Shown: in pieces, positions 4,819 to 36,324 of the stretch | Layout: each line of letters begins with the position of its first letter | How positions within the stretch are numbered: position 1 is the first letter of the stretch | IMG/VR virus record: IMGVR_UViG_2529292717_000013 | Direction: 5' to 3' (one strand) | DNA length: 37,577 bases | DNA from: a virus | Lineage: Duplodnaviria; Heunggongvirae; Uroviricota; Caudoviricetes | Position numbers and translations under genes: made by a program | Notes under the pieces: generated by a model | Seen by the model: only the letters and a program-made list of their open reading frames with translations | Database searches by the model: none | Told to the model about the DNA's origin: nothing

Positions 4819-4940
4819 GAAACCAGAACATGCACACACAAAAAAACCGCTTGCCATGCCGCAATCAGTCAGGTTACATTTCCGCTGCACCTCATAAAAC
4901 GGGTGCCGGGTTTCGCAGCCCGCTGACAAACGTAGCGCAC

Positions 4941-4962
4941 AACCGCGCCAGCGGTTTTTTTG
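4941..4962 (+). terminator. candidate rho-independent terminator (AACCGC-GCCA-GCGGTT + T7)
   Basis: Stem-loop followed by a T-run, about 120 bp after the 99-aa ORF. Confidence 0.4.
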
Positions 4963-5140
4963 TGCGTACTGTATCGCCACGTCTTTTTCGCATCTGAATT
5001 ATGGTGGGGCGTACGGGGCCGACTTCGGTCGGGCCGGGTTCTGCGTTTGCCGGTACTGCGAACCTCGTACGTCTCGCCACCCACAGTTTCGCAGCTCTGG
5101 ATGGTGAGTTTTCACAACTTACACACGTAGAGGCCACACC

Positions 5141-8709: not shown

Positions 8710-9669
8710 ATGAAAATTTGTATCGACGACGGCTCCACCAACATCAAGCTGGCATGGACTGAGAACGGCGAACGCCGCAACGCCATCAGCCCGAACAGCT
8801 TCAAGTCGGAATGGTCTGCGCCGTTCGGTGGCACGCATCCCGCGAACTACATGCTTGATGGCGTGCGCTATGGCTTTGATCCGGTCAGCGATCGTTTTGT
8901 CCAGACGACTGACACGCAATACCAGTACAGCGATGTGAATGTAATCGCCATTCATCACGCGCTGGTCAAATCAGGCATCACGCCACAGGAGGTGGATGTG
9001 GTTGTCACCCTGCCACTGAGCGAGTATTTCGACACAAACGCACAGCCGGACATGGCCAACATCAACCGCAAAAAAGCGAACGTCATGCGCCCGGTGGAGT
9101 ACCAGAACGGCGAAGCATTCACTATCCGTAACGTACGGGTTATGCCTGAATCCATTCCGGCTGGCTTTAAGGCACTGGCTGACATGAGTCCGTTTGAATC
9201 CCTGCTGATTGTGGATTTGGGCGGAACCACGCTGGATGTGGCAAAGGTTCAGGGGCAGCTGGCAGGTATCAGCCAGGTGTTTTGCGATCCAAACGTAGGC
9301 GTTTCCCTGATGGCTGATGCCGTGCTGTCGGTGATGGCCACTAACGGTATGCGTACCAGTCACCACATCGCCAATACCATTATTGAGCACCGTCACGATG
9401 AAGCCTGGCTGCGCCAGCACATTCACAATGACGCGCATTACAACAGCCTGATGGCGGTTATTCGTGAAAAGGAGGAGACACTGAAACAACGAGTGATCCG
9501 CGCGCTGGCGGGTTTTTCCGGTTACGGGCGGGTGATGGTTGTCGGTGGAGGGGCGGAGATTGTGGCACCCGCTATCCGCGAAGCCTGCGGAGTTAATGCG
9601 ACTTTCATCGCGGACGGGGTGCCACAGTTTGCTCTGGTTAATGGGCTGTACGCAATGAACAAGGAGTAA
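8710..9669 (+). CDS. parM: actin-like segregation ATPase ParM/StbA
   Basis: 319 aa; N-terminus MKICIDDGSTNIKLAW and downstream blocks closely resemble plasmid R1 ParM as remembered. Confidence 0.85.
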   Translation: MKICIDDGSTNIKLAWTENGERRNAISPNSFKSEWSAPFGGTHPANYMLDGVRYGFDPVSDRFVQTTDTQYQYSDVNVIAIHHALVKSGITPQEVDVVVTLPLSEYFDTNAQPDMANINRKKANVMRPVEYQNGEAFTIRNVRVMPESIPAGFKALADMSPFESLLIVDLGGTTLDVAKVQGQLAGISQVFCDPNVGVSLMADAVLSVMATNGMRTSHHIANTIIEHRHDEAWLRQHIHNDAHYNSLMAVIREKEETLKQRVIRALAGFSGYGRVMVVGGGAEIVAPAIREACGVNATFIADGVPQFALVNGLYAMNKE

Positions 9670-16627: not shown

Positions 16628-17422
16628 ATGATTACTCCTGCACAGCAACACTGGCAGAACGTGATGGCACAGCGCGCAGGCCGGGCGAATGAAGGCGTGG
16701 ACCATGCCGCGCGTACCGCGCATGAAGAGGTGCTGTATCGTCTGCGTCTGGCACAGGCCCGGCTTAAGGGCGTACAGGCCAGAAGCGCGAAAGCCGCCAT
16801 CAAAAAAGAGTTATTGCCGGACTTTTCCGGCTGGATTGAGGGAACGCTGGAGGCTGACGGCGGGCAGCAGGATGAAGTGATTGCCACGCTGATGGTGTGG
16901 GCGATTGACTGCGGCGATCTTCCGCTTGCGCTGCGTATTGGTGCTATGTGGTCCGTCACAACCTCATCATGCCGGATAACTTTGGACGTACTGCTGCCAC
17001 GGTACTGACCGAAGAAATCTGTAATCCGGTACTGACGCAGGCCGGGACGGATGCCGACGCGGATTTGTCCGCCTTTATCGAACCACTGGACACCCTCCGG
17101 GAGATTGTCACCGACCAGGACATGCCGGACGAAGTGCGCGCCAAATTATGCAAGCGTGCGCCTTTGCCCGCCGTGGCCTGAGATGCGGACAGCATGGCCT
17201 TCACTGAAGCTGCTGCGCGAAGCGATGCACCTGAACCCGAACGCAGGTGTGAAACGCGAGATTGCAACCCTTTCCCGCGCCCTGAAAAAAGCCGATTCCG
17301 CAGCCGCACCAGAAGATGCCAGCACACCGCAGGCGCAGGACGAAAGCAGCAAAAGTAAAAAGACAACGCGGAAGCCTGCAACACGAAAAACCACCGCGAC
17401 GCAGAAGGCGAAGCGCGGTTAA
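16628..17422 (+). pseudogene. M: terminase small (endonuclease) subunit; two frame changes at about 16945 and about 17178
   Basis: Three track ORFs (16628..17008, 16948..17181, 17051..17422) in frames 2/1/2 each match consecutive segments of gpM, including MPDEVRAKL and AGVKREI. Confidence 0.8.
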
Positions 17423-19490: not shown

Positions 19491-19942
19491 TTCCCTGCGT
19501 GAAGCCATGACCCGTTCATGCCGATGGTGTCAGGCCAACCCGGAAAAATTCACCATTTTCGTGGAGAGCGGCAACATTGAAACGACCGGAGAAACGCCCT
19601 CGTTTGTTTAACGCTATCAGATGGTGATGTTTGTCATGGATTACGCCGGGGAGCTGGACGACCTCACGCTGCCGCTACTGGCGTGGTTATCCGAAAATCA
19701 GCCACAGTTGTTGCTCAATCCGGAGCGTAATCAGGACATCAAATTCTCCGCCGTTATCAATGACGATGACAGCGCCGATCTCCTGTTTACGCTCCCTCTG
19801 CGGGAACGCGTTCGCATACGCGCACAGTCAGGGGACACCGCAGGCAGAACACCTGCCGGAGCCAAAACCCCGTCTGCCATCTTCCGAAGGCGACTGGTCG
19901 CATGTATTCCAGGATGTGACGTGGGGTGAAAGCGATGGATAA
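19477..19942 (+). pseudogene. R: tail completion protein R; in-frame TAA at 19609-19611 plus a frame change near 19830-19860
   Basis: MLKTDSLR... N-terminus like gpR; the stop aligns with a K/E position of homologues; the C-terminal HLPEPKPRLPSSEG is in another frame. Confidence 0.7.
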
Positions 19943-20570: not shown

Positions 20571-21289
20571 GCGCAGAACTCATGCGACTGCTGAGCAATA
20601 TCATCCGCACCGGGATCATCTCTGAAGTTGATGAGAAGTCCTGGCGCGTGCGCGTTCGCAGCGGCGAACTGGAAACAGGCTGGTTGCGCTGGAACACCAC
20701 GCGCGCGGGAGCCTTCAATGTGTGGCTGCCGCCATCACCAGGCGAACAGGTGGTAATTGCCTGCATTGGCGGCAACCCGGAAACCGCCATGATAATTGGC
20801 AGCCTGTGGAGTGATGCCAGTCCGGCACCCGGCAAAAGCCTGAAAGAAATCGTGATCAGCGCGCCGGACGGCGCGGTGTTCCGCTACGACGCGGACGCAG
20901 GCGCACTGAGCGCCAGCGGCATGAAAACGGCCACTTTACAGGCATCCGTCAGCGTGAAACTGGATACGCCCGTCGTGGAATGCACAAACCTTCTGAGAAC
21001 GGCGACGCTTGACGTCACAAAAGGAGGAAAGATGAGCGGCAATATCACGCACAGCGGCGGCAACTTCACCTCAAACGGCATTACCGTGCATACGCATAAA
21101 CACGGTGGCGTGAAAGGCGGCGCGATTCGACAGGAGGCCCGCAGTGACAACCCGCTACACAGGAATGAATCCGGACGGAACGGGAAACCTGAACGATATG
21201 GAGCACCTGAAACAGTCAGTCAGGGACATCCTGACCACCCCGCTGGCAAGCCGGGTTATGCGACGGGAATATGGCAGCCTTGTGCCTGA
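20567..21289 (+). CDS. V: baseplate assembly protein V (spike); 3' end probably frame-shifted, true stop likely about 21147
   Basis: GNPETAMIIGSLWS and THKHGG motifs; the last ~45 codons of the observed ORF read through the W start and look non-protein-like. Confidence 0.8.
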   Translation: MSAELMRLLSNIIRTGIISEVDEKSWRVRVRSGELETGWLRWNTTRAGAFNVWLPPSPGEQVVIACIGGNPETAMIIGSLWSDASPAPGKSLKEIVISAPDGAVFRYDADAGALSASGMKTATLQASVSVKLDTPVVECTNLLRTATLDVTKGGKMSGNITHSGGNFTSNGITVHTHKHGGVKGGAIRQEARSDNPLHRNESGRNGKPERYGAPETVSQGHPDHPAGKPGYATGIWQPCA

Positions 21290-21493
21290 TTTGATTGACG
21301 AACCCATGAATAACACCACGCGTCTGCAATGCATGAGTGCTGCCGTGATTGCGCTGACACGATGGGAACCCCGCATTGCCCTGGATGCCATCGACGTTGT
21401 CTGGAAAGCGGGAGGCCGCGCCGGGGTGACCTGTCGGGCACTGTCATGCAGACCATGCAGAATGTTGAGTTAACCATCACGCTAAGGGAGTAA
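21144..21493 (+). CDS. W: baseplate protein W (gp25-like); frame change at a G-run near 21435
   Basis: MTTRYTGMNPDG...RVMRREYGS...WEPR typical of gpW; the conserved C-terminus DLSGTVMQTMQNVELTITLRE is in the adjacent frame, ending at 21493. Confidence 0.8.
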
Positions 21494-21496
21494 ATC

Positions 21497-22380
21497 ATGC
21501 CCGCCGTTGACCTTTCACAGTTACCGGACCCCGCCATCATCGCGGAGCCTGACTTTGAGGCAATTCTGGCTGACACAAAGGCCATGATGATTGCGGCTTA
21601 TCCCGCCGAACAGCGTGAAGCCGTTTCCGCCGCGCTGGAGCTGGAATCGGAACCCCTTAACGTTATCGCTCAAACCATGTCGTTTCGTGAAATGCTGTTA
21701 CGCCAGCGGGTTAACGAGGGTGCACGCGCCTGCATGTTAAGCCACAGCGCCGGGACAGACCTGGACAACCTCGCGGGCAATATGAACACAAAGCGCCTGG
21801 TTATCACTCCGGCAACGGATACCACCGACGCGGTGATGGAAGCGACACCTCGCTGAGACTGCGGGCGCAACGGGCGTAGACGGCCTGAGGTTGCTGGCCC
21901 GTCAGGGCATACGAGTATTTTGCCCGCAGCGCCAGCGGTCTGGTGCGTGATGCGCGGGCTATCAGTCCGTCTCCGGCAAATGTGACGGTTTCCATCCTGT
22001 CCACTGAAGGCGACGGCACGCAACGGAGGCGTTGCTTAATACCGTTCGCGCCGTTCTGAATGCAGAGGATACCCGCCCGGTGGCCGACCGCCTGACCGTA
22101 CAGAGTGCCAGAATCGTGACATGGCGGCTGAATGCAAAACTGTACTTTTACCCCGGCCCGGAATCCGAACCTATTCTGGCTGCGGCGGAATCGTCGTTCA
22201 GGAAGTGGCTGGCTGAGCAGGGGCTTATCGGTCAGGACGTGGCGTTGTCGCCATTGCTGCCGCACTGCATGTGCACGGTGTGCAACGCGTGGAGATAATC
22301 GAACCCACACAAATATGGCCATCAGCGACATACAGGCGGCGCGCTGTGAGTCTTCACCATCAGCGAAGGTGGGCGAATGA
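21497..22380 (+). pseudogene. J: baseplate protein J; at least five frame changes
   Basis: gpJ-like segments are found successively in frames 2, 1, 2, 1, 0, 2, 1 (for example MPAVDLSQLPDP..., RAYEYFARSASG..., LNAEDTRPVADRLTVQ..., ALHVHGVQRVE...). Confidence 0.8.
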
Positions 22381-22904
22381 GTAATTCACTGTTACCGCCA
22401 TCAGCCAGCATTTCATGCGTTGTGCCGAAGCTGTCGGAACCGCATTACAGACATCCCGGTAGACCTCAACACCTGTGGTCGCCGGATACCTGCCCGGTGC
22501 ATCTGCTGCCTTATCTCGCCTGGGCATTTTCCGTTGACCGCTGGGATCGCAACTGGCCGGAAGAGACAAAGCGACAGGTGATTCGTGATGCATGGCTGAT
22601 ACACCGACACAAGGGAACCATCAGCGCACTGCGCCGGGCCATTGAACCACTGGGATACCTCATTCGCGTGTCTGAGTGGTGGGAGTTCGGCGGAGAACCG
22701 GGAACATTTACCGTTGAAGTCGGCACGCTGGACAGTGGCGTGACGGAGGAAATGTATCTGGAAATGGAGCGGTTGATTGCTGATGCCCGCCCGGTCAGCC
22801 GCCACATGACAGGGCTGAATATCATTCAGGAGATCCCGGGAGATATTTTCGCGGCGGCAGCAACTTACGACGGCGAAGTCATTACCATTTATCCAGACGA
22901 TTAA
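22377..22904 (+). CDS. I: baseplate/tail-fibre attachment protein I
   Basis: 175 aa; NPDTCP..LLPYLAWAFSVDRWD...GYLI..EWWE pattern like P2 gpI. Confidence 0.85.
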   Translation: MSNSLLPPSASISCVVPKLSEPHYRHPGRPQHLWSPDTCPVHLLPYLAWAFSVDRWDRNWPEETKRQVIRDAWLIHRHKGTISALRRAIEPLGYLIRVSEWWEFGGEPGTFTVEVGTLDSGVTEEMYLEMERLIADARPVSRHMTGLNIIQEIPGDIFAAAATYDGEVITIYPDD

Positions 22905-22906
22905 GT

Positions 22907-25077
22907 ATGAGTACCACAACACGAAAATTTAAAACCGTTATCACCAATACGGGTGCAAAAAAATTAGCTCAGGCAGCCGCGCCAGATGGTAAGCCTGTCC
23001 GCCTGACTCATATGGCCGTGGGCGACGGTGGCGGCACGTTGCCCACACCAGACAGTAAGCAGACCCGTCTGGTGCATGAGGTGTGGCGACACACGTTAAT
23101 CGCGTCATCCTGGACGCAACACATCAGAACCGCATTATTGCGGAGCTGGTTATTCCTCCTGAAACGGGCGGATTCTGGATCCGGGAAATTGGTGTATTTG
23201 ATGAGCACGGCGATTTAATCGCGGTGGGCAATACTGCCGAAAGTTACAAACCAACCGTTGCCGAAGGGTCCGGACGTACACAAACATTTCGCACCATTCT
23301 GACCGTATCCAGCACTGCCACCGTGGCGCTTACCGTGGATAACACCATGGTGATGGCCACAGTGGATTACGTGGATGACAAACTGAAAGAGCATGAACAG
23401 TCACGACGTCACCCGGATGCCTCGCTGACCGCAAAAGGCTTTGTTCAACTCAGTAGCGCCACTAACAGCGATTCTGAAACGCTGGCTGCAACGCCGAAAG
23501 CGGTTAAGGCCGCGTATGACCTGGCTAACGGAAAATATACCGCTCAGGACGCCACGACGGCACGAAAAGGGATAGTCCAGCTCAGCAGTGCAACCAACAG
23601 CACGTCTGAAACGCTGGCAGCGACACCAAAAGCTGTTAAGGCGGTAATGGATGAAACGAACAAGAAAGCGCCCTTAAACAGTCCTGCGCTGACCGGAACA
23701 CCAACAACACCAACTGCGCCAAAAGGTACTAATAATACTCAGATCGCAAGTACGGCTTATGTGATGGCCGCGATTGCCGCCCTTGTAGACTCGTCGCCTG
23801 ACGCACTGAATACGCTGAACGAGTTAGCGGCGGCGCTGGGCAACGACCCGAATTTTGCGACCACCATGACTAACGCGCTTGCGGGTAAGCAACCGAAAGA
23901 TGCCACCCTGACGGCGCTGGCCGGGCTTGCTACTGCGGCAGACAGGTTTCCGTATTTTACGGGGAATGATGTCGCCAGCTTGGCAACCCTGACAAAAGTT
24001 GGGCGGGATATTCTTGCGAAATCGACCGTTGCCGCCGTTATCGAATACCTCGGTTTACAGGAAACGGTAAACAAGGCTGGTAACGCCGTTCAGCGTTCCG
24101 GCGATAAAATGACCGGAGAACTGAAAATTGGCACGATGAATGCGCTGCGAATTTTTAATGATGCCTTCGGTCTTATTTTCCGTCGTTCAGAAGAGTACCT
24201 TCATTTCATCCCTACGGCTGAAGGACAAGGCGAAAACGGTGATATCGGCCCATTAAGGCCATTCGCTATAAATCTGAGAACAGGTGCTATATCTGTCAGC
24301 CACGGGGCCAAAATTGATGGTGGGCTGGCGCTTGGTACAGATAACGCACTGGGCGGTAATTCCATTACTCTCGGAGATAACGACACTGGTATTAAACAGG
24401 GCGGCGACGGTGTCCTTTTATTCTATTCAAATGGACAACTGGCATTTGGGCTTCAACCCGCATCTGCTGATTTTTATAAGCGGGTTGCATATATTCATCA
24501 GGGAATAATTCCTGATGGAAGTGGCGCATTTGCAGACCAGTTGAATAATGCCACCGCGCCTTTTGTTCAGACGCAGTTTGCCTGGAATCCCACTCCTGGT
24601 GGTCATTACGTGCCGATAGTTAAGGGCTTGTCCATTCGCAATGGACAGGGCTATCCCGGCGCGGTCAGCTTTGGGTATTTACTGACAGAACAGTATGGAT
24701 TTCCGGTTCCATGTATTCATATGCGTGGCGATGGCGGTAATGATGCTTTATGGCAGTTTAACCCGAACGATAAATCCTTTATTTCACCGGGTGCTCTTAT
24801 TGCGGGTGGCGTCCATTATAACACCGATGGAAATATATTTGGTGGGTGCTGGGGTTCAAACTTAAATGATTACCTGAATAGTTCTTTTATCAGAAATGTG
24901 CGTCTGGGAGGCAGACGTTCTGACGTATTATATCGCGGAGGACTTTGCGAACCAGGTAATGGTCATGTGACAACAGGATTGCAAATTATTGGTGAGGTTG
25001 ATGGAGATGACTGGATGGTGTCACGACCACTACAAAAATACATTTATGGTAACTGGTATAACGTTGAACAGGCATAG
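22907..25077 (+). CDS. H: tail fibre protein H; one frame change near 23097 separates the N-terminal about 60 codons
   Basis: N-terminus MSTTTRKFKTVITNTGAKKLA...HEVWRH then IIAELVIPPE in the next frame; two copies of the tail-fibre repeat SSATNS(D/T)SETLAATPKAVKA. Confidence 0.85.
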
Positions 25078-25092
25078 CCATCAGGAGAATAT

Positions 25093-25620
25093 ATGCAACA
25101 TCTGAAAAATATTACCGCCGGAAACCCCAAAACCATTGAGCAGTATCAGCTTACGAAAAAAGCTGGCGTTATCTGGCTATATACAGAAGACGGTAAAAAC
25201 TGGTATGACGAATTAAAAAACTTTCAGGATGATACTTTAAAAATAGCTTATGACCAGAAGGGGATTATTCGTTGTATTGAGAAAGACGTATCAATGCTTA
25301 ACCCTGACGGGTTAAGTGTTGTTGAGTTACCGAATATAACAGCCAACCGTCGCGCCGATATCTCGGGAAACTGGAAGTTTCTGGATGGTAAAGTAGTAAA
25401 GCGGGAATATACAAAACAGGAACTGCAACAGCAGGCAGAGTTACAAAAAGCCGCTTTGCTTTCCGAAGCGGAGTCTGTGATTCAACCGCTGGAACGTGCT
25501 GTCAGACTGAATATGGCAACTGATGAGGAACGCACACGACTGGAATCATGGGAACGCTACAGCGTTATGGTCAGCCGTGTGGATACTGCAAAGCCTGAAT
25601 GGCCACAGAAACCAAAATAA
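25093..25620 (+). CDS. G: tail fibre assembly protein (Tfa, gpG-like)
   Basis: 175 aa; C-terminal [29 protein letters not shown] pattern of Tfa proteins. Confidence 0.8.
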
Positions 25621-25631
25621 CAACAAATTAA

Positions 25632-25652
25632 GGCCCGTACGGGCCTTTTCTT
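25632..25652 (+). terminator. rho-independent terminator (GGCCCG-TA-CGGGCC + T-run)
   Basis: Directly after the tfa stop. Confidence 0.6.
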
Positions 25653-25683
25653 ATTCTGGTGGTTCCGGGAATGTTACAGGAAG

Positions 25684-25839
25684 AACCAAATAGCAAGGCT
25701 GATCAAAAACGGTCATGACAGGAAACAACTGGCGATCATTTACGACATCGGCATATCGACGATTTATCGTTATCACCCTGTAGGCGATATACAGGCTGAA
25801 GAAACAACCAGGCAGACTCAGGAAAATGAAAACCGCTAA
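25684..25839 (+). pseudogene. C-terminal remnant (about 50 codons) of a Hin/Gin/Cin-type serine DNA invertase
   Basis: Translation NQIARLIKNGHDRKQLAIIYDIGISTIYRYHPV matches the C-terminal HTH of Hin (EQISRLLEKGHPRQQLAIIFGIGVSTLYRYFPA, recalled); no N-terminal catalytic domain upstream. Confidence 0.6.
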
Positions 25840-25858
25840 TCTGACCATTAGCGGTTTT
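25831..25858. terminator. bidirectional terminator (AACCGCTAAT ... ATTAGCGGTT + T-run)
   Basis: Perfect 10-bp stem after the stop of minus-strand U. Confidence 0.5.
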
Positions 25859-25865
25859 GCGTTAA

Positions 25866-26360
25866 TCAAAACAGCCCTTTAACGGAGCTGGCCGCGCTGT
25901 TAAGGGATGATGTGACCTTATCTTTGAAGCCGGACAGCATATCACTGAACGATGAGGATTGCAGGCGCTCCCGCAAATCCTCATCACAGCGTTCAAGGGT
26001 CAGTGAAAATTCTATCTTTTTCGCCTTACCGTAGCGATCAAACTCGGAGCGGGTCGTATTCGTTTCAGTCAGTACATACATGCCGTAAATCTGCCCGACA
26101 CCATCAATCAGAGGCCAGGGGCGTCCTGTATATGCCTGCGTGGTCAGCAACGAAAGCGACACTTCGCCACCTGTAATTTCAGGATAAAGCACACCAGAAA
26201 GAACGATGCGATCATCACCTGCACCGATATACTGCCAGCTTGCTGAACGGTTAACGCGTTCATTTTTCACATGCCGCCAGCTTTTGTTTTGCTGTAACTG
26301 CTGATGCGGCAGCGTGCGCAGCTCAAAAACAAACATGCCGTAGATCATCATCATGACCAT
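25866..26360 (-). CDS. U: tail protein U
   Basis: 164 aa; FVFELRTLPHQ...WRHV...G.PWPLIDG pattern of P2 gpU. Confidence 0.85.
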   Translation of the reverse strand: MVMMMIYGMFVFELRTLPHQQLQQNKSWRHVKNERVNRSASWQYIGAGDDRIVLSGVLYPEITGGEVSLSLLTTQAYTGRPWPLIDGVGQIYGMYVLTETNTTRSEFDRYGKAKKIEFSLTLERCDEDLRERLQSSSFSDMLSGFKDKVTSSLNSAASSVKGLF

Positions 26361-26366
26361 GACTCC

Positions 26367-29201
26367 TCAATCTTTATCGTAAAAACTGCCACGCCCGGCA
26401 CGGGCGCGCCGTTCCATTTCTGCCCTGACCATTTCACCGACCAGTTTCGCCAGTTCGCGGGGATTCTGTGTAACAACGTTATGCAGATGAACATGAATTT
26501 CACCGCCAAATCCGGAGGCAACAGGCTCCCGGTTACGGGAAGTTGCAGGAACTGATGCCACTGGAGATCGTATGGCCTCTGCCACCGGGCGGGAGCTGGC
26601 CGCAACAACAGGGACCAGCGCCGGAGGCAGCGGAGCCGGAACCACGGGTGTGATATTAATTGCGGGGGCAGGCTTACTGACCTGCGCAATCTTCCGCTCC
26701 TGCCACTCCCCACGAACGGCAAGTGCGCGGGGCAGGTTCTTAAAGACAATATCGCCGGGGCCAATACGTTTTTTCGTCTCATCAACCAGCTTACCTGTGT
26801 TATCAGCAATTTTGCTGAGTCTGCGTAGCGTACCGGTATTGCTGTCTGTGAGTGGTTTGTTGTCTTTGGGTTTATCACCTCCGGTGCCATTGCCATTTTC
26901 CACAGGCTTCGGCGGATTGATTTTCGCCAGGTCTCCCTGAAACAGAGCAACCTTGTCCTGAAGAATGGCCGCACGCTGTGCGTCTTCGATTTTCTTGCTC
27001 GCCCTTTCAGCTTCATCCGGAAGGACGCCAAGTTTTTCAAGTATCCACGCCAGCGTATCCAGTAGCATTTTTGCAGGTGTCAGAACAAGCTGTAACGCAC
27101 CGCCAAGAACGTTACCGAATATCTCGCCAGCACTGGTACATTTATCCAGCGTTTCCTTGCTGGACTCCATCGGTGACAGCAGCGATTTAAACCAGTTAAA
27201 CACCTGACTTATCCCGCTTCCGATTGCGTCAAAAACAGGACCAAACCGTTCAAAGGTTTCGCGTAACGGGGCCAGCCGCTCCATAATCCCGCTGAACACC
27301 CCGGCATAAAACGCCTTGATGGGTTCCCAGTATTTCCAGATGAGAACCGCCGCAGCCACAAACGCAGCAGCAATCAATCCGACCGGGCTGAACAGCGCCC
27401 CGATAGCGCCCCCCAGTAACGAAACGGAACCCGTCACCATTCCCCATAGTGCTGGCAGGAGCCTGACAGCATTCATTGATCCGGTCAGGAGAGAAAAACC
27501 AAGACGCAACGTGGCCAGCTTCCCGTGAAGCACTCCAATAACCAGCGACAACGAGCCAACCGTTGCAGTCATTGCCAGCAGCGCACCGCCTGCTATCAGT
27601 AACTGGCGCGTCAGTACCGGATGGGCCTGTGCCAGCGCCGTCACCTTTGAGACCACCCGCGTGAGCCACTGCGTGACAGAACGCAGCGGACCATCAATCA
27701 GATCTGCAATGCGGATACGCAGCCCTTCCCATGCACTGCCGAGTGATTTCAGGTCGCCATCAAGGTTATTGGCCATAACCTTTGCCGTGCGTTCAGCCTC
27801 ACCGCGTGCGCCCTCAAGTTCTTTTCTCAGTTTGGGCAGGGAGCCGTCACCCGCCGCATCAACGAGAGCCATAAACGACGTGAAAGCCTCTTCCCCGGCA
27901 ATGTCCTTAAAGAACGATACCCGGTCAACTTCCCCGTATTTGCGGGTGGCTTTATAAAGGTCAGCCAGCAGATCTTCCATCGGGCGCATTTTGCCGTTCG
28001 CATCAGAGACGGACACACCCAGCTCTTTCAGCGCCTCTGCTGCTGCCTTTGGCGGTGATGCCAGACGAGCCAGGCTGGCACGCATTGCCGTCCCGGCATC
28101 ACTCCCTCTGATACCCATATTCGCCAGCACGCCGCCATCGCTGCGCCTGCTCCAGCGATATTCCCAGCTTACCCGCCACCGGACCGCATATTTCATGGTT
28201 TCGCCCAGTGCGCGAAGGTCAGTGTTGGTACGGGTAAACGCTGCAGTGAGTGTGTCACCGACCCGGTCCATCTGGTCAGCGAAGGCCGAACTGCGTCAGG
28301 ATATTTGAGCCAATATCGCCGTCTCGCCAGTCCATACCGCCAGCCGTTGCCATGCTCACACGCCGGGAAGCGCAGCCTGAATGGCCTGCGGTGTGAAGCC
28401 AGCCATTGCCAGAAATGCCTGCCCACTGGCGGCATCGCCTGCGGTGAACTGCGTTTCAGAGCCAAGTTTTAACGCCTGCTCACGCAGCGCCTTAAACTGC
28501 GGGCTGTTTTTGTCGATTCGCGTCAGTGCCTGAACGCGGGACATCTCTTTCCCGAACCCGATCGCAGGCTGCAAAAAACGCCCGGCAGCATAGCTGCCAG
28601 CCGCTGTCGCACCAATTGCCAGCGCACCACCTGTTTTCAGTTTTCCCGCTGTTTCCTGCGCACGCGAATACCGCTCACGCGCCCGCGTTACACGCGCAAG
28701 CGACTGCCGTTCGCGTTCAAGCTGGTTGTTGTACTGCTCGGTGCGTCTGATGGCCTGCTGGATGGTGTTATCGCTGCCTGTCAGGGAAATGCCGTGGCGT
28801 TTCAGCTCTCCGCCAAGCTCCCGCATTTTCTGAATTTCCCGTGTGCGCGATTCATTCAGGCGTTCAAGCCGGGTGCTTAACTGCTGCATCAGCTTTTGTT
28901 GCTTTTCGCTGAGCACTGTACCCGTGCGTTGTAACTGATTAAGGGCGTTAAGCTGGCGTCGTGCTTTCACGATACCCGCATCCGCTTTACTGACAGCGTC
29001 GCGGGCGCGCTCAAATGAACGCGCCTGACGCTCGAGATTTTTGATCGCCCCCTGCGTTCGCTGGATGGAGTCACCAAACTGCCCCATCAGGCGGCGGGCG
29101 TTTTCGGCAGGCCGGGTCAGCCTGTCAACGGCGCTGAAAGCGACCCGGATATCAAGAGTCTTCATTGTCTGCATTCCCGCTGCGAAGTGCCGCCCGCTCA
29201 C
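26367..29201 (-). pseudogene. T: tail tape-measure protein T; compensating pair of frame changes at about 28285-28355
   Basis: Track ORFs 28356..29201 and 26367..28271 are in the same frame; the conserved segment between them (VSMATAGGMDWRDGDIGSNILTQFGL) is in another frame. Confidence 0.85.
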
Positions 29202-29681
29202 GCCAGCTAACCACTTCGCCGGGCGTCATCATGAAGATTTCGGCGGGCGACCAGTTAAAAATAACGGCAATATCTGCCACAAAGTCTTCTATGTGCTCAA
29301 AGCACACAACCGTGATCAGGCTTCCGTCGCCTGTTCGTTCTTCCCGCCAGAGTCCGCACCGCTCAAAAAATTTACGGCAACCACACATAACTGAATAAAG
29401 TCACGGGATGCCATTTTTTTGATCGTCACTTCATCCAGTCGCGGTGATGTCACGCGTGACAGCAGCGTAAACATGGATTCCGCTTTCAGATTCAGCACAT
29501 CAGACAACGACAAATCTCGCAGAGATCCAGCCTGCTCAATAGCTCCGGTGATCTCCACATACGTGATTTTTTCGCCGCCTCGCTCAATTGGTTGGGTAAG
29601 TTTTACGCCACGCTCACTGGTTTCTTTCACAGTGTCAGCAACGACCGTGTTTTCGGTATCGATGTTTTTCGTCTCTTTCAT
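29152..29681 (-). CDS. E+E': E+E' tail assembly chaperone produced by programmed -1 frameshift
   Basis: The E' frame (track ORF 29152..29388) is -1 relative to E and continues as FFERCGLWREER...WRERAALRSG after the heptamer T TTT TTG. Confidence 0.65.
29316..29681 (-). CDS. E: tail assembly chaperone E
   Basis: 121-aa ORF between T and FII; contains the slippery site near its 3' end. Confidence 0.75.
   Translation of the reverse strand: MKETKNIDTENTVVADTVKETSERGVKLTQPIERGGEKITYVEITGAIEQAGSLRDLSLSDVLNLKAESMFTLLSRVTSPRLDEVTIKKMASRDFIQLCVVAVNFLSGADSGGKNEQATEA
29364..29370 (-). promoter_or_regulatory. programmed -1 ribosomal frameshift slippery heptamer T_TTT_TTG (E to E')
   Basis: Coordinates derived from the E and E' codon phases; X_XXY_YYZ pattern in the E frame. 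Confidence 0.6.
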
Positions 29682-29735
29682 CAGGAAACTCCTTTCAGTC
29701 AGAGGCGACGCACTGCGCCGCCTGCATATTACTTA

Positions 29736-30248
29736 TCAGCCAAGCCCAAGCGCGGAACGGATGCGATCGGGCACAATGTCCTTGCCGTCCTTCCGGTAAA
29801 TGAAGTTCAGCAGGTCAATCTCCCACAACGGACGATCGTTAACACTCAGCTTGTAGTAGGTGTTTTTAATGGCGTAAGTGTGTGATGTGGCTTCGCCCTG
29901 TTTGGCTTCCCCCATATCAATTTCTGTCACACGTCCGCGCATTTCGACTTCATACAGGTCGCTTTCTGCATCGGTGTAGTATTCACCCGCAAAACGCAGC
30001 AGCGTGCCGTCAATCGTGCCGCCATACTTCAGGAACAGCTCACGAACTGCGCCCCCCATGACAAAGCTCGCATCAAGCGCGGAGTCGTCCAGACCGAGAT
30101 CAATACTTACCGCACCCATCATGCCACCACCCCGGTAGCTGTCGGTTTTGCGCGTCAGCTTAGGCAGAGTGACGGACGTCACCTTACCCACTTCGTTTTC
30201 ACCATCCACAAACAGCGTAAAAAAGCGAAGATGTTTTGGCACAGCCAT
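29736..30248 (-). CDS. FII: tail tube protein FII
   Basis: 170 aa; MAVPKHLRFFTLFVDGENEVG...YRGGGMMGAVSIDLGLDD like P2 FII. Confidence 0.85.
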   Translation of the reverse strand: MAVPKHLRFFTLFVDGENEVGKVTSVTLPKLTRKTDSYRGGGMMGAVSIDLGLDDSALDASFVMGGAVRELFLKYGGTIDGTLLRFAGEYYTDAESDLYEVEMRGRVTEIDMGEAKQGEATSHTYAIKNTYYKLSVNDRPLWEIDLLNFIYRKDGKDIVPDRIRSALGLG

Positions 30249-31429
30249 CAGGCACCTCCCAGCACCGCAAATGCAGGTTCAAAGTATTCATCAGTAAACG
30301 TCTGGTAAAGCTCCATGTCTTCCAGTGGCGGAACAGGCGTATATTTGTAGCGAATACGCACACGCCCCTGACGTAAATCCGTGGTGCTGTTATCCACCAC
30401 GTCATACCAGCACTCCGCGCCAATCAGTTTCCCGGCAGTAACCAGTGAATCCAGTTTTGCCCTGATGGCACTGATAACATCCTTCACGTTCGCAGGCGTC
30501 AGTGGACTGTCGATGGTTTCAAACTGCGCTTCTGCAATTGAATCAGCCAGCACCTGTGCGGTTCGGGTATACACCTCAAAGATGTAGGCGTTCGTTTCCG
30601 GTGTGCGGTTGCCCCAGAAGCGGAACCCGTTGCGACGAATAATGGTCGTGATTTCTTTGTTGTTGAGGCTGTTGGCATCGCTGTCTTCGGCCTGCAACGA
30701 CCAGAACACATGCCTCGACATCCCCAGCACATTTTTAACCGGAACGTTGGACAGCGATTTGTGCCAGCCCTGCTCATGGTCAATGTACGCACGAAGGCCG
30801 CACGCATAAGCAGGCGCGGGGAACGTTTCGTTTTCGCCACTTTTCGGGTTGTAGGCGATGAAGTCCGGCCATAAGAGCATCACCTCACGTTCGTTGAATT
30901 TCTGGCGGTAGGTAATCGCTTCAGCCATCGTGTTACAGCCGTGACATGAGGCATACACAAATGCGCGCAGTTTACCCGCAATCACGCACAGGGATTTTGT
31001 CACCGCCTCCGTGTCCAGCTCCGGCGCGGCCAGAATACGCGGACGGTATCCGATGCTTTCATCCTGCTCTGCAACAAGCAGCGCATACATCCCCGTATAG
31101 CTGCCGTCATCCTCAGAACCACCGATAACCAGTTGATCCTGCGTTTTCGTCTTCTTCTTTGTGTTCAGCCACGCGAACGACGATCACCTTTGTGCTCACC
31201 TGGTCTGCGATGGCCTTAAGCGCACGATAAAGCGTCCCCGTTGTCCGCATTTTCCCAGCACGTCATTGACGCGGGTCAGCAGTGTGGGCTTGTTCAGCGG
31301 GAACAGCTTCGCGTCCGCATCATCCGCCGTTGCCACGATACCGATAACGCTGGAATCAACATCGTTAATCGCTGTTACCAGGTCGGTATTTTCCGTAACA
31401 CGGGCACCATGAAAACGAGTTTCACTCAT
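30248..31429 (-). pseudogene. FI: tail sheath protein FI; compensating pair of frame changes at about 31140-31245
   Basis: Track ORFs 31196..31429 and 30248..31090 are in the same frame; the conserved middle segment (TLYRALKAIADQVSTKVIVVRVAEHKEEDENA) is in another frame. Confidence 0.85.
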
Positions 31430-31585
31430 AGCTTCAGCCCCTTGTATCCGTTAAATGATTCGGCAACAATCATCACCCACCACGCGCGTAATCTCACCCC
31501 TGCGCCGTTCTCCCGCCACGGCGACAACAAAAAGCAGTACCCCCCTCCGCACGCACATGCGACCATGCCGCACAGGGAGGGAAAG

Positions 31586-32689
31586 ATGACCGACACCACC
31601 ATGCAATTGCTCAGTCAGGGCACAGACCCCGTGAAAATGCCGGATTTTGATATTCTCGCCGAGGGTAAAACGCTGTCCGGCGTGGCAGAACGCCTGATGA
31701 GCCTGTCACTGACCGACAACCGGGGATTTGAGGCGGACCAGCTCACCATCACGCTGGATGATGCCGATGGCCAGTTGCAGCTACCGCCACGGGGCGCGCG
31801 TCTGACGGTTCTCATTGGCTGGAAAGGAGAACCGCTGACAGAAAAAGGCACTTACATTGTTGATGAAATCGCTCACGAAGGACCGCCGGACAGGCTGACT
31901 GTTTCAGCCAGAAGCGCAGATTTTCGGGATGAATTTAACGTTAAACGTGAGGTGTCCTGGCATGATGTGACCGTTGAGCGTGTGGTATCCGCCATCGCTC
32001 ATCGGTACGGTCTGAAACCGCAAATCAGCGAAATGCTGATGGATATCGAAATCGACCACGCCGACCAGACCGAAGAAAGCGACATGTCCTTCTTACGCGC
32101 ATGGCGGAAATGCTGGGCGCAATCACCACGGTAAAAAGCGGAATCTGTTATTCATATGCCGGCGGTGGCGTGAACGCACAGGGCCAGCCGTTGCCATCGT
32201 TCGCCATCACCGCAGCAGGGCGATCGCCATCAGTTCCGCATTGCTGACCGCGAAGCGTATACGGGGGTACGCGCTTACTGGCTTGATCTTAATTACGGGA
32301 AAAAGAAAAAAGTCAGCGTGAAACGCCGCAAACCGCCAAAACCCAAAAAGGAGAAAAGCAGCAGCCGTGAAGGTGATTATATGGAAGGCGCGGAAGGAAA
32401 TGTGTTTGTGTTACGCAAGACTTATCAGAACGAGCAGGCAGCAAGACGCGCAGCGGCGGCAAAGTGGCAGCAGCTACAACGCGGAGCCGCATCATTCTCC
32501 ATCACACTGGCACGTGGACGAGCAGAACTCTACCCCGAAATGCATGGCACGGTAACAGGATTTAAAAGCGAGATTGATAATCAGGACTGGATTATTGCAA
32601 AAGCCGGGCACACCATTGATAACAGCGGCTTTACCACGCAGCTTGAGCTTGAGGCAAAAATCCCGGAATGGATAGCGGAAACAGAGTGA
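31586..32689 (+). pseudogene. D: tail protein D (late control gene D family); compensating pair of frame changes at about 32095-32225
   Basis: Start at the ATG after a GGGAGGG RBS (MTDTTMQLLSQG...); conserved segments in frames 2, 1, 2; C-terminal part is track ORF 32318..32689. Confidence 0.8.
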
Positions 32690-33732: not shown

Positions 33733-34566
33733 ATGGTCATGAATAATAAGCTAAAGGTAATTGAGTTAAATAGTCTTGATCTGTTTCGTAAAGAATTACT
33801 AACTACTATAAAGCCAGAGAAAGTAGAGAAATTACTTAGATGGTATCTTCAATCATATGGCGGTGTTAATTTCAAGTTCGGTTATGACAGACCAATTTTT
33901 AGAGCGCGAAAGTGCCCAAATGAATGCGGATATAATAACATCAGTGAGATATATCCCCCTCCACCAGAAAAATGTAAAATAGGCCGAATGAATGATGATG
34001 GACAAGCTATCTTCTATGGCGCTTATAGTATCGGAACAGCTTTAGCCGAAATTAATGCAAAAGAAGGGGATTATGTTCACATAGCTCACTTTAAGATGCC
34101 GGAAAATTCAGAGTCTGGAATGCGATGTTTTGCTATCGGTGAGGTCTTTAATGTGTATCACGGTGTAAATACAATTTCAATTGAAGTGTTTAATGAAATT
34201 CGCGACATCATTAGCAGAATTGGTAAGGACGACATCCGAGCTTTGCTATCATATTTGTATATGGATGCCCTTTCTGCTGAGTTGCTTAATAGTATCAATG
34301 CCCATGAGGTAAATTATATTTACTCAAGAATTTTTTGCCGTCTTCTTCTTGATAAATACCCTGATGTTGATGGCCTTATTTATCCTAGCGCTAAAATAAA
34401 AGGGGCCTCAAATATCGCTTTGCGCACAGAAACAGTTAAATCGAGAATGCATTTAGTTGCTAATCTTGTGTTTAAAGTAAATAAAATTTATCCATATGGA
34501 ATAGTAGATTTCAGTATAGTAAAACAAGCCAAAGGACATACATCAGATGGGCGCATCGTTTGGTGA
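33733..34566 (+). CDS. RES-domain protein (putative NAD+-targeting toxin-like effector), solo
   Basis: 277 aa, AT-rich; GRMNDDGQAIFYGAYSIGTALAE and DGLIYPSAKIKGASNIALRT resemble the R...E...S motifs of RES domains (recalled). No adjacent Xre-type partner. Confidence 0.5.
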   Translation: MVMNNKLKVIELNSLDLFRKELLTTIKPEKVEKLLRWYLQSYGGVNFKFGYDRPIFRARKCPNECGYNNISEIYPPPPEKCKIGRMNDDGQAIFYGAYSIGTALAEINAKEGDYVHIAHFKMPENSESGMRCFAIGEVFNVYHGVNTISIEVFNEIRDIISRIGKDDIRALLSYLYMDALSAELLNSINAHEVNYIYSRIFCRLLLDKYPDVDGLIYPSAKIKGASNIALRTETVKSRMHLVANLVFKVNKIYPYGIVDFSIVKQAKGHTSDGRIVW

Positions 34567-35430: not shown

Positions 35431-36324
35431 ATGAAAAATATGATTTTTTCTATAGGTGCATTATTTATATCAATTAGTGTACTGCCTGTTCACGCAGCAA
35501 CTGAACATAAGAATTTCAATGCAGTGCTCCAGTGCCGAGCGATAGAAAACAATAAAGACAGACTTTCTTGTTACGATAAGTCAATACAACCGACTCGAAC
35601 GAAAGTTGCTGACAAATTTGAAAGCAGGGATCAATGCCCTGATGAGAAAGATGATGACAAACGTTTATCTTGTTATGATCGTTTTTTTTCTCCAACATTT
35701 ACTCCATCTGTAAACTCAAAATCTAAAACGGAAAAGCTAGTAACAACAGAGGCTCAGCAACCAAATCTTTCTGAAATATCTAAATGCCGAGCAGAAAATG
35801 ATAAAGAAACCAGACTAAACTGCTACGATAAACTATTCCCACAGGATGAAGCTGTTCAATCTGAATCACAATTAGAGAAAGCCACAGATGCAGGAAAATG
35901 GCACACGTCCATTACTACATCGCCAATTGATGATTCGAAAAATGTAATTTTATCGTTAGAAAGTGATGATTATATCAGAACTCCATTTGGAGAAGCTGTT
36001 ACTCCCACTCTGTTTATAGCTTGCCGAGAAAAGAAAACCGAAGTATTTCTTAGTTGGGATGTATATTTAGGCCTTGAACAAACCAGCATGCTGTATCGTC
36101 TTGATAAACAGAAAGCAGTTGAAAGAAACTGGCTAATATCTACAGATACAAAGGCTGTTTTTTATAAAGGTAATGATATTGATTTCATAAGAAAACTTGC
36201 CAACTCACATAAAATGTACACAAAAATAACCCCCTATAATGAAAGCCCTGTAAGTGCAACTTTCAATTTAAGCGGCCTGTCAAATGCACTAAAACCGCTT
36301 CAAGATGCTTGTAACTGGAAATAG
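35431..36324 (+). CDS. secreted protein with three RL(S/N)CYD(K/R) repeats
   Basis: 297 aa; signal peptide MKNMIFSIGALFISISVLPVHAA; repeats DRLSCYDK, KRLSCYDR, TRLNCYDK; AT-rich; 4-bp gap to the upstream gene. Confidence 0.55.
   Translation: MKNMIFSIGALFISISVLPVHAATEHKNFNAVLQCRAIENNKDRLSCYDKSIQPTRTKVADKFESRDQCPDEKDDDKRLSCYDRFFSPTFTPSVNSKSKTEKLVTTEAQQPNLSEISKCRAENDKETRLNCYDKLFPQDEAVQSESQLEKATDAGKWHTSITTSPIDDSKNVILSLESDDYIRTPFGEAVTPTLFIACREKKTEVFLSWDVYLGLEQTSMLYRLDKQKAVERNWLISTDTKAVFYKGNDIDFIRKLANSHKMYTKITPYNESPVSATFNLSGLSNALKPLQDACNWK

Follow-up and report, generated by a model that had tools for sequence, protein, structure and literature searches.

Positions 25687-25839 (+) of the window, i.e. 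of the whole 37,577-nt stretch of DNA analysed in this study, carry the last 50 residues and the stop codon of a serine DNA invertase of the Gin/Hin family (153 nt, codons 150-199). We consider it very probable that this segment, in which only the helix-turn-helix (HTH) domain survives, is the dead remnant of an invertase gene left by a deletion that locked the tail fibre of the phage. The homology, the exact junction, the missing parts, and the existence of intact and invertible relatives were all observed directly.

The invertase remnant and the deletion junction

The reading frame containing the remnant extends without a stop from 25621 to the TAA at 25837-25839 (+) and gives the translation QQIKARTGLFLFWWFRECYRKNQIARLIKNGHDRKQLAIIYDIGISTIYRYHPVGDIQAEETTRQTQENENR, i.e. 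QQIKARTGLFLFWWFRECYRKN joined to QIARLIKNGHDRKQLAIIYDIGISTIYRYHPVGDIQAEETTRQTQENENR. The two remaining frames over the remnant are closed, and an ATG at 25671 lies in a different frame and is followed by a stop after 15 codons. The remnant peptide is matched by the Pfam resolvase HTH domain HTH_7 (PF02796; E=3e-9; 37.3 bits, the cut-off being 23.8 bits), and the HTH-coding 3' end of the invertase gene contains conserved stretches such as TCGACGATTTATCGTTAYCACCC. In a tblastn search with the intact 199-aa invertase of Escherichia coli O169:H41, residues 150-199 were placed at 25687-25836 with 100% identity (E=3e-29). These results bear out the initial annotation, which had described a relic of a Gin/Cin/Hin-type invertase with only the C-terminal HTH (about 50 codons) left. 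The extent that it had given (25672-25839) is right at its end and wrong at its start: alignments of the window with intact genes place the beginning of invertase homology at 25687/25688, and the preceding DNA (25651-25686) belongs to a second chaperone gene, tfa'.

No other part of an invertase was detected in the 37.6-kb window by tblastn with the O169:H41 invertase and the Mu-type Gin, both of which matched from residue 150 onward only; the first approximately 200 nt of the gene are missing, and there is no further invertase elsewhere in the window. The catalytic Resolvase domain with the active-site serine (PF00239), present in the relatives, was not found in the remnant by Pfam analysis. 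Between the tfa stop codon and the HTH the invertase frame contains no ATG, GTG or TTG, and no promoter-like site was detected in 25400-26000. According to Rfam there is no known RNA within the remnant; the only matches in the window, both above the gathering score, lie in the early region, where isrK (4887-4961, +, 69.6 bits) is located beside a C4 antisense RNA (4997-5084, +, 80.4 bits). A minus-strand ORF of 72 aa (25651-25869), lying antisense to the remnant and the U terminator with its end in the tfa' stump, was dismissed as a mechanical ORF; it has been called as a gene in one assembly and has no Pfam match.

The flanking genes agree with the initial annotation. Upstream of the remnant lie the tail fibre gene H (22907-25077, +; Pfam Phage_tail_fib and Phage_fiber_2) and the expressed tail-fibre-assembly gene tfa (25093-25620, +; 175 aa; Caudo_TAP, E=9e-35), the protein product of which occurs in identical form in P88-like, Mu-like and lambdoid contexts. 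H is intact in relatives (723 aa) and frameshifted near 23094 in the assembly of the window; its variable C-terminal part, from 24031 onward, is the formerly invertible cassette. A bidirectional terminator hairpin (25630-25647), kept at the same place in relatives, separates tfa from the former tfa'. Downstream, the terminator of the convergent U operon, identified by a terminator search (25829-25858, -), overlaps the stop codon of the remnant and is followed by U (25866-26360, -; Phage_P2_GpU, E=5.5e-39), the first gene of the convergent tail block, with the tape-measure gene alongside it, also on the minus strand. The remnant is located, as first annotated, between the tfa and U terminators, and since it is flanked by both of them and has no in-frame start codon, it is probably silent. 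Other genes recognized in the window comprise an integrase gene at the left edge (1-1002, -), a ParM/StbA-type actin-like segregation gene within the prophage (8710-9669, +), a RES-domain gene near the right end (33733-34566, +) and, past the latter, a gene for VasI (type VI secretion), presumably of the host (35431-36324, +).

Megablast of 25000-26400 against phage genomes gave matches that divide exactly at 25687. On the left side, the Mu-like Yersinia phage vB_YpM_3 is 99.4% identical over 25000-25687, and its intact tfa' starts here and ends with ...VLPVTFPEPPE*; by this match, 25651-25686 (-) is the left stump of the deletion and consists of the last 12 codons (VLPVTFPEPPE*) of the inverted tfa'. 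The right side is 93-96% identical to P88, P88_4B11, other members of Xuanwuvirus and Citrobacter phage phiSM, in which the successive genes are annotated as 'DNA invertase', 'tail protein' and 'tape measure'. At the junction nt 36-37 of tfa' are joined to nt 448 of the invertase gene, the sequence of which resumes from CAAATAG. The window reads ...GGGAATGTTACAGGAAGAAC/CAAATAGCAAGGCTGATC..., the tfa' of vB_YpM_3 ...GGGAATGTTACAGGAAGAACCGAGGTATC... and the intact invertase gene ...AGAACAGCATGAG/CAAATAGCAAGGCTGATC..., and in the alignment the microhomology at the join amounts to 1 nt at most.

The deletion is approximately 2 kb long, and the catalytic domain, the right crossover site, nearly all of tfa' and the alternative fibre end have been lost with it. 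Neither a second tfa nor an alternative fibre C-terminus was found in the window by tblastn, the queries matching only the expressed H and tfa; such alternative C-termini, for which the initial annotation had suggested a check, are present in the relatives. The proposal that the switch is now locked or deleted is consistent with this set of absences.

Intact and degenerate switches in related phages

The window is P88-like: outside the fibre cassette, P88 and P88_4B11 are 93-96% identical to it over 21389-32388. Its gene order is that of Xuanwuvirus (V W J I H tfa, invertase slot, convergent U T E FII FI, then D; more than 90% identity to P88). P88 is an inducible P2-like phage (PMC6456863), and tail-fibre inversions by prophage invertases have been surveyed (PMC9881135). 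In the P88 family H and tfa point rightward and are followed by a second tfa and a partial fibre gene pointing leftward, by a rightward gene for an invertase of 195-199 aa, and by U, T, E and the tube and sheath genes, again leftward. The convergence of H-tfa with U-T, which had been taken for an inversion junction of the tail block, is thus the normal layout of Xuanwuvirus.

Intact invertases occupy this position in P88, P88_4B11, Citrobacter phiSM, hundreds of E. coli genomes and about 60 of a sample of 80 IMG/VR relatives; 14 of the remaining loci have other cargo or nothing in the slot and four carry relics, which indicates that loss of the switch is common in the P88-type family. At loci with an intact invertase the chaperone pair was found in one orientation 18 times and in the other 16 times, as an active switch would produce. 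The relatives therefore supply what an ancestral invertible tail-fibre switch, as postulated earlier, calls for (an alternative C-terminus, an inverted tfa', paired sites and both orientations), and this points to the deletion as the event that locked the fibre of the window.

In the loci with cargo or an empty slot (L021, L029, L034, L036, L044, L052, L054, L064-L069, L072, L074), the space between H/tfa and U is filled with unrelated AT-rich DNA, or tfa is directly followed by the U terminator; the cargo of this slot is variable. The intact invertase of the P88 type is itself a mosaic, with approximately 97% DNA identity to the Mu-type gin over nt 1-380 and a Hin-like HTH thereafter (L005 4554-5153 compared with L002 7130-7747; 42% amino-acid identity to Gin in the HTH part). 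The protein of O169:H41 matches Gin of Mu (PDB 4m6f) with E=2e-101, and its residues 139-185 match the Hin DNA-binding domain 1HCR. The variable fibre end with tfa (24031-25687) shares 98.9% identity with the G segment of vB_YpM_3 and 98.3% with a side-tail-fibre cassette of lambdoid prophages (L093/L095; 24031-25687, and 23433-25687), in which the neighbouring invertase gene is cut to a 64-aa Resolvase-domain ORF. One cassette is thus common to Mu-like, lambdoid and P2-like phages.

Inverted-repeat search in P88_4B11 identified typical gix/hix-like crossover sites of 26 bp, TTATCGAATACC TC GGTTTACAGGAA within H and TTCTCGTAAACC GA GGTTTTAAATAA near the invertase gene. The first is matched exactly in the window at 24038-24063 (+), inside H, where it forms an orphan left site. 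Scored with a position weight matrix built from 11 real half-sites, under which real sites reach 28-32 bits, it obtained 28.3 bits, as against 7.9 bits for the second-ranking 26-mer of the window. The right-hand site, located in relatives about 50-55 bp upstream of the invertase start, is deleted, and no other match to the degenerate consensus is present in the window. Paired gix-like sites near H/tfa, a search for which the initial annotation had suggested, occur in inverted orientation in the relatives, and the window retains a single one. The best site-like 26-mer of the invertase gene, TGATCAAAAACG GT CATGACAGGAAA, lies inside the HTH-coding remnant (25700-25725) and scores 2.9 bits in total and 7.6 bits for its left half (P about 0.02), as compared with 28-32 bits for real sites.

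A gix/hix half-site, TTACAGGAA, had also been proposed at the 5' edge of the remnant. This sequence (25674-25682) is the same as the outermost 9 nt of the genuine site (24055-24063) and occurs in three copies in the window, as compared with 0.13 expected. It is nevertheless coding DNA of tfa' (minus strand, ...LPVTFPEPPE*), and the best surrounding 26-mer scores 7.5 bits against the 28-32 bits of real sites. The same sequence occupies the same spot in the intact tfa' of vB_YpM_3, the real sites of which are elsewhere; the other tfa' allele has GTTACTGGCAG there, showing no conservation; and the invariant inner ACC is lacking. For these reasons we reject it as a half-site and treat the resemblance as coincidental.

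The same junction as in the window was found in one IMG/VR contig, in one metagenome contig and in at least eight further E. coli assemblies, and in these relic-bearing relatives J, H, T and the other tail genes are full length. The relic is carried, for example, by the strain of assembly GCA_000356345. It was absent from all 5426 complete E. coli genomes and was not found among the GTDB species representatives. Contig AQDF01000042.1 of assembly GCA_000354815.2 matches the window with 100% identity over 8528 nt. The window differs from each relic-bearing relative by 23-27 small indels of patchy distribution, which break J, H, T and the sheath gene (patches of 1-2-nt deletions at 17151-17200, 19817-19824, 21121-23094, 28131-28358 and 31147). 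Given the identity with AQDF01000042.1, this points to assembly errors or strain-specific decay, and because of the many frameshifts the copy in the window may not be a viable phage. The region 25093-26360 shows no indels in comparison with the relic-bearing relatives.

Equivalent relics have been annotated in other genomes. That of E. coli 4238 (M5T38_RS06110) is recorded as a pseudogene ('helix-turn-helix domain-containing protein, missing N-terminus'), and some assemblies annotate the window-type stretch as a 70-aa protein from a non-canonical ATT (P0001). The left stumps of the window and of 4238 each match a known tfa' allele perfectly, namely that of vB_YpM_3 and an SK1144/O169-type allele, respectively, and differ in length by 1 nt. 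Either two separate events would have produced these junctions, or one junction was moved between the alleles by homeologous recombination stopping at heterology.

Origin of the junction and clustering of truncation points

The arrangement is best explained by descent from a P88-type prophage (genus Xuanwuvirus, P2-like) equipped with a host-range switch resembling the G segment of Mu. In such an ancestor a Gin/Hin-family serine invertase would have flipped approximately 2.7-3 kb between the 26-bp site in H and its inverted counterpart immediately preceding the invertase gene, so swapping the fibre C-terminus along with its assembly chaperone. A single deletion of approximately 2 kb would then have fused tfa' nt 36-37 to invertase nt 448, taking the invertase promoter, start codon and catalytic domain, the right site, the alternative fibre C-terminus and almost all of tfa'. 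In gin, hin and cin, a Fis-dependent enhancer is located in about the first 200 nt of the gene; by analogy with Gin and Hin, the enhancer is presumably gone with the lost 5' part. The fibre would have been fixed permanently in the orientation from which the H C-terminus and tfa now present are expressed. Since the same relic sits in otherwise intact prophages, phages of this lineage are probably viable with a fixed fibre.

The deletion itself most probably arose by illegitimate recombination, with 0-1 nt of microhomology, and not by the action of the invertase. Two other origins of the breakpoint were considered and rejected. A microhomology-mediated deletion does not fit, as only 0-1 nt are shared and the nearby 6-nt repeat AAGAAC lies 8 nt off and is inconsistent with the product; nor does the junction coincide with the end of the homology to Gin, which stops near nt 380 and not at nt 448.

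An alternative, to which we assign only a very small probability, is that the invertase made the deletion by recombining two directly oriented quasi-sites, located in the 3' end of tfa' and within its own gene, with TTACAGGAA as part of a quasi-site. The use of quasi-sites by Cin has been described in older literature; our literature search on Cin quasi-sites turned up nothing relevant. Apart from the excess of TTACAGGAA copies mentioned above, this reading draws on the parent tfa' allele, which reads GAACC GA GGTAT at the breakpoint, identical to the central 11 nt of the real site, and on the junction of the window (AACC/AA/ATAG), which falls where a 2-bp staggered cut would be expected. However, the tfa' breakpoint yields a 26-mer of -11 bits (only within the top 4% of window 26-mers) and the invertase breakpoint one of -34.5 bits (worse than 83% of all 26-mers), as compared with 28-32 bits for real sites. 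Moreover, the same register fails to reproduce the junction of E. coli 4238, and half-site-like sequences beside the other junctions are inconsistent. As for an accidental similarity or an assembly artefact, for which the many small indels in the assembly of the window might speak, this reading has virtually no probability left: it is already refuted by the 100% identity to an intact invertase over 150 nt and 50 aa, by the identical junction in independent assemblies, IMG/VR and a metagenome, and by the indel-free alignment of 25093-26360.

The proteins retrieved with the remnant as query were all short, HTH-only and from E. coli or Salmonella. Across P88-like and P1-like phages, no fewer than five unrelated sequences adjoin the 600-nt invertase gene on its left within nt 445-457, where the HTH begins (the window at 25687, L004, L100-L109, L017, L127, L172 and L210); simple random deletion would not predict such a clustering. 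The junction at nt 445 (L104-106) has a pectate-lyase fibre cassette on its left. At nt 448, the left-hand sequence is the 36-nt tfa' stump in the window type, another tfa' allele, 1 nt shorter, in E. coli 4238, and an 865/911-aa fibre cassette in the P88-like L100-103, L127 and L172 as well as in the P1-like L107/108, the copies of which adjoin lydA/darA. An alternative H C-terminus is joined at nt 455 (L109), and other sequence at nt 457 or before (L017, L210). The DNA to the left of the junction in the L100 and L104 types gave no match in the phage collection. Junctions also occur elsewhere, at nt 287, about nt 525 (SK1144 type) and, at the protein level, about nt 300-345, and some lineages retain just 75 nt of the invertase gene or none. 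The clustering is partly a matter of ascertainment, as a search with an HTH query is limited to remnants in which the HTH is nearly complete, and recombination moving one old junction between alleles explains another part of it. Explanations of the coincidence of unrelated flanks by quasi-sites, microhomology or a homology boundary were tested and found no support.

There is perhaps a slight chance that the repeated HTH-exact truncation marks a hot spot at the boundary between the catalytic domain and the HTH, or else that selection favours a 'docking arm' or protein made of the HTH alone, through which non-invertible fibre cassettes can be swapped between phage families. Less probable still, and in our opinion improbable, is that the HTH-only remnant is a retained functional module, either a small DNA-binding protein occupying gix-like sites, which might for example block the invertases of co-resident prophages at the orphan site in H, or a cis-acting DNA element; the shared domain boundary would then reflect selection. 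The joining of at least five different flanks at the HTH start is what such a module would lead one to expect, and the isolated 52-residue domain of Hin is known to bind hix half-sites specifically (1HCR structure). In addition, one relic type (L100-103, L127, L172 and the P1-like L107/108) has a GTG after GGGAGG and is annotated as a protein of 53 or 44 aa; 8 of the 5426 complete E. coli genomes carry it. The window and 4238 types, however, have no in-frame ATG, GTG or TTG and are confined between two terminators without a promoter-like site. The remnant begins at residue 150 and hence lacks the GRRPK minor-groove arm preceding helix 1, which studies of the Hin domain have identified as necessary for tight binding. 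Furthermore, among the relic alleles unlike any intact allele sampled (those of the L100, L104 and L017 types), most substitutions in the HTH are non-synonymous (including, in the L100 type, replacement of the conserved glycine of the HTH turn by serine), as expected for a drifting pseudogene, and both the lineages with 75 nt or nothing left and the contribution of ascertainment to the clustering weigh against a retained module. For the window type, no support emerged for a functional protein consisting of the HTH alone.

Comparison with known invertible segments

The Din family of enhancer-dependent serine DNA invertases comprises Gin (G segment of Mu), Cin (C segment of P1), Pin (P segment of e14) and Hin of Salmonella, and Din-family invertases switch tail-fibre C-termini. 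The intact relatives have the plan of the Mu G segment: a constant fibre part, a 26-bp site, a variable part with its chaperone, an inverted second set, a second site and the invertase gene. The window differs in retaining only the 153 HTH-coding nt and one site, so that nothing in it can invert. It is further set apart from Gin by its Hin-like HTH part (42% identity to the Mu-type protein there) and from Mu by its P2-like genome, in which the FI-U tail block converges on H-tfa. In genome type and locus it agrees with P88, P88_4B11 (Xuanwuvirus, Peduoviridae) and Citrobacter phiSM, with a U/T flank 93-96% identical and an identical H crossover site; these phages, in contrast to the window, which lacks approximately 2 kb, keep tfa', the alternative H C-terminus, the right site and an invertase of 195-199 aa.

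The locus closely resembles the annotated E. coli relics (M5T38_RS06110 of 4238 and WP-type HTH proteins of 42-70 aa), which represent the same gene, in the same position between tfa and U, truncated at the same point or within a few nt of it. It differs from them in its left-hand DNA, which in those relics comes from a different tfa' allele or from fibre cassettes of other kinds that lack tfa, and one type among them has a plausible GTG start. With no catalytic domain, second site, second cassette or start codon, the remnant is not a functional Din invertase and the locus is not an invertible segment. Its HTH domain is homologous to that of these enzymes, and its sequence marks it as a descendant of a Din-family invertase of the Mu G-segment type. 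The switch, its occurrence in P88-like phages and relics of this sort are already contained in annotated public genome records, and the remnant (the last quarter of the gene) is an ordinary, already annotated kind of pseudogene.

The remnant in itself matters little. It records the loss of a host-range switch in a lineage that now makes a single fibre type, which is of use in predicting receptor specificity and in annotating such stretches as pseudogenes and not as 'HTH proteins'. The locus also illustrates the circulation of one fibre cassette among Mu-like, lambdoid and P2-like phages; only the clustered truncation points, if real, would reveal something new about the exchange or decay of fibre modules.
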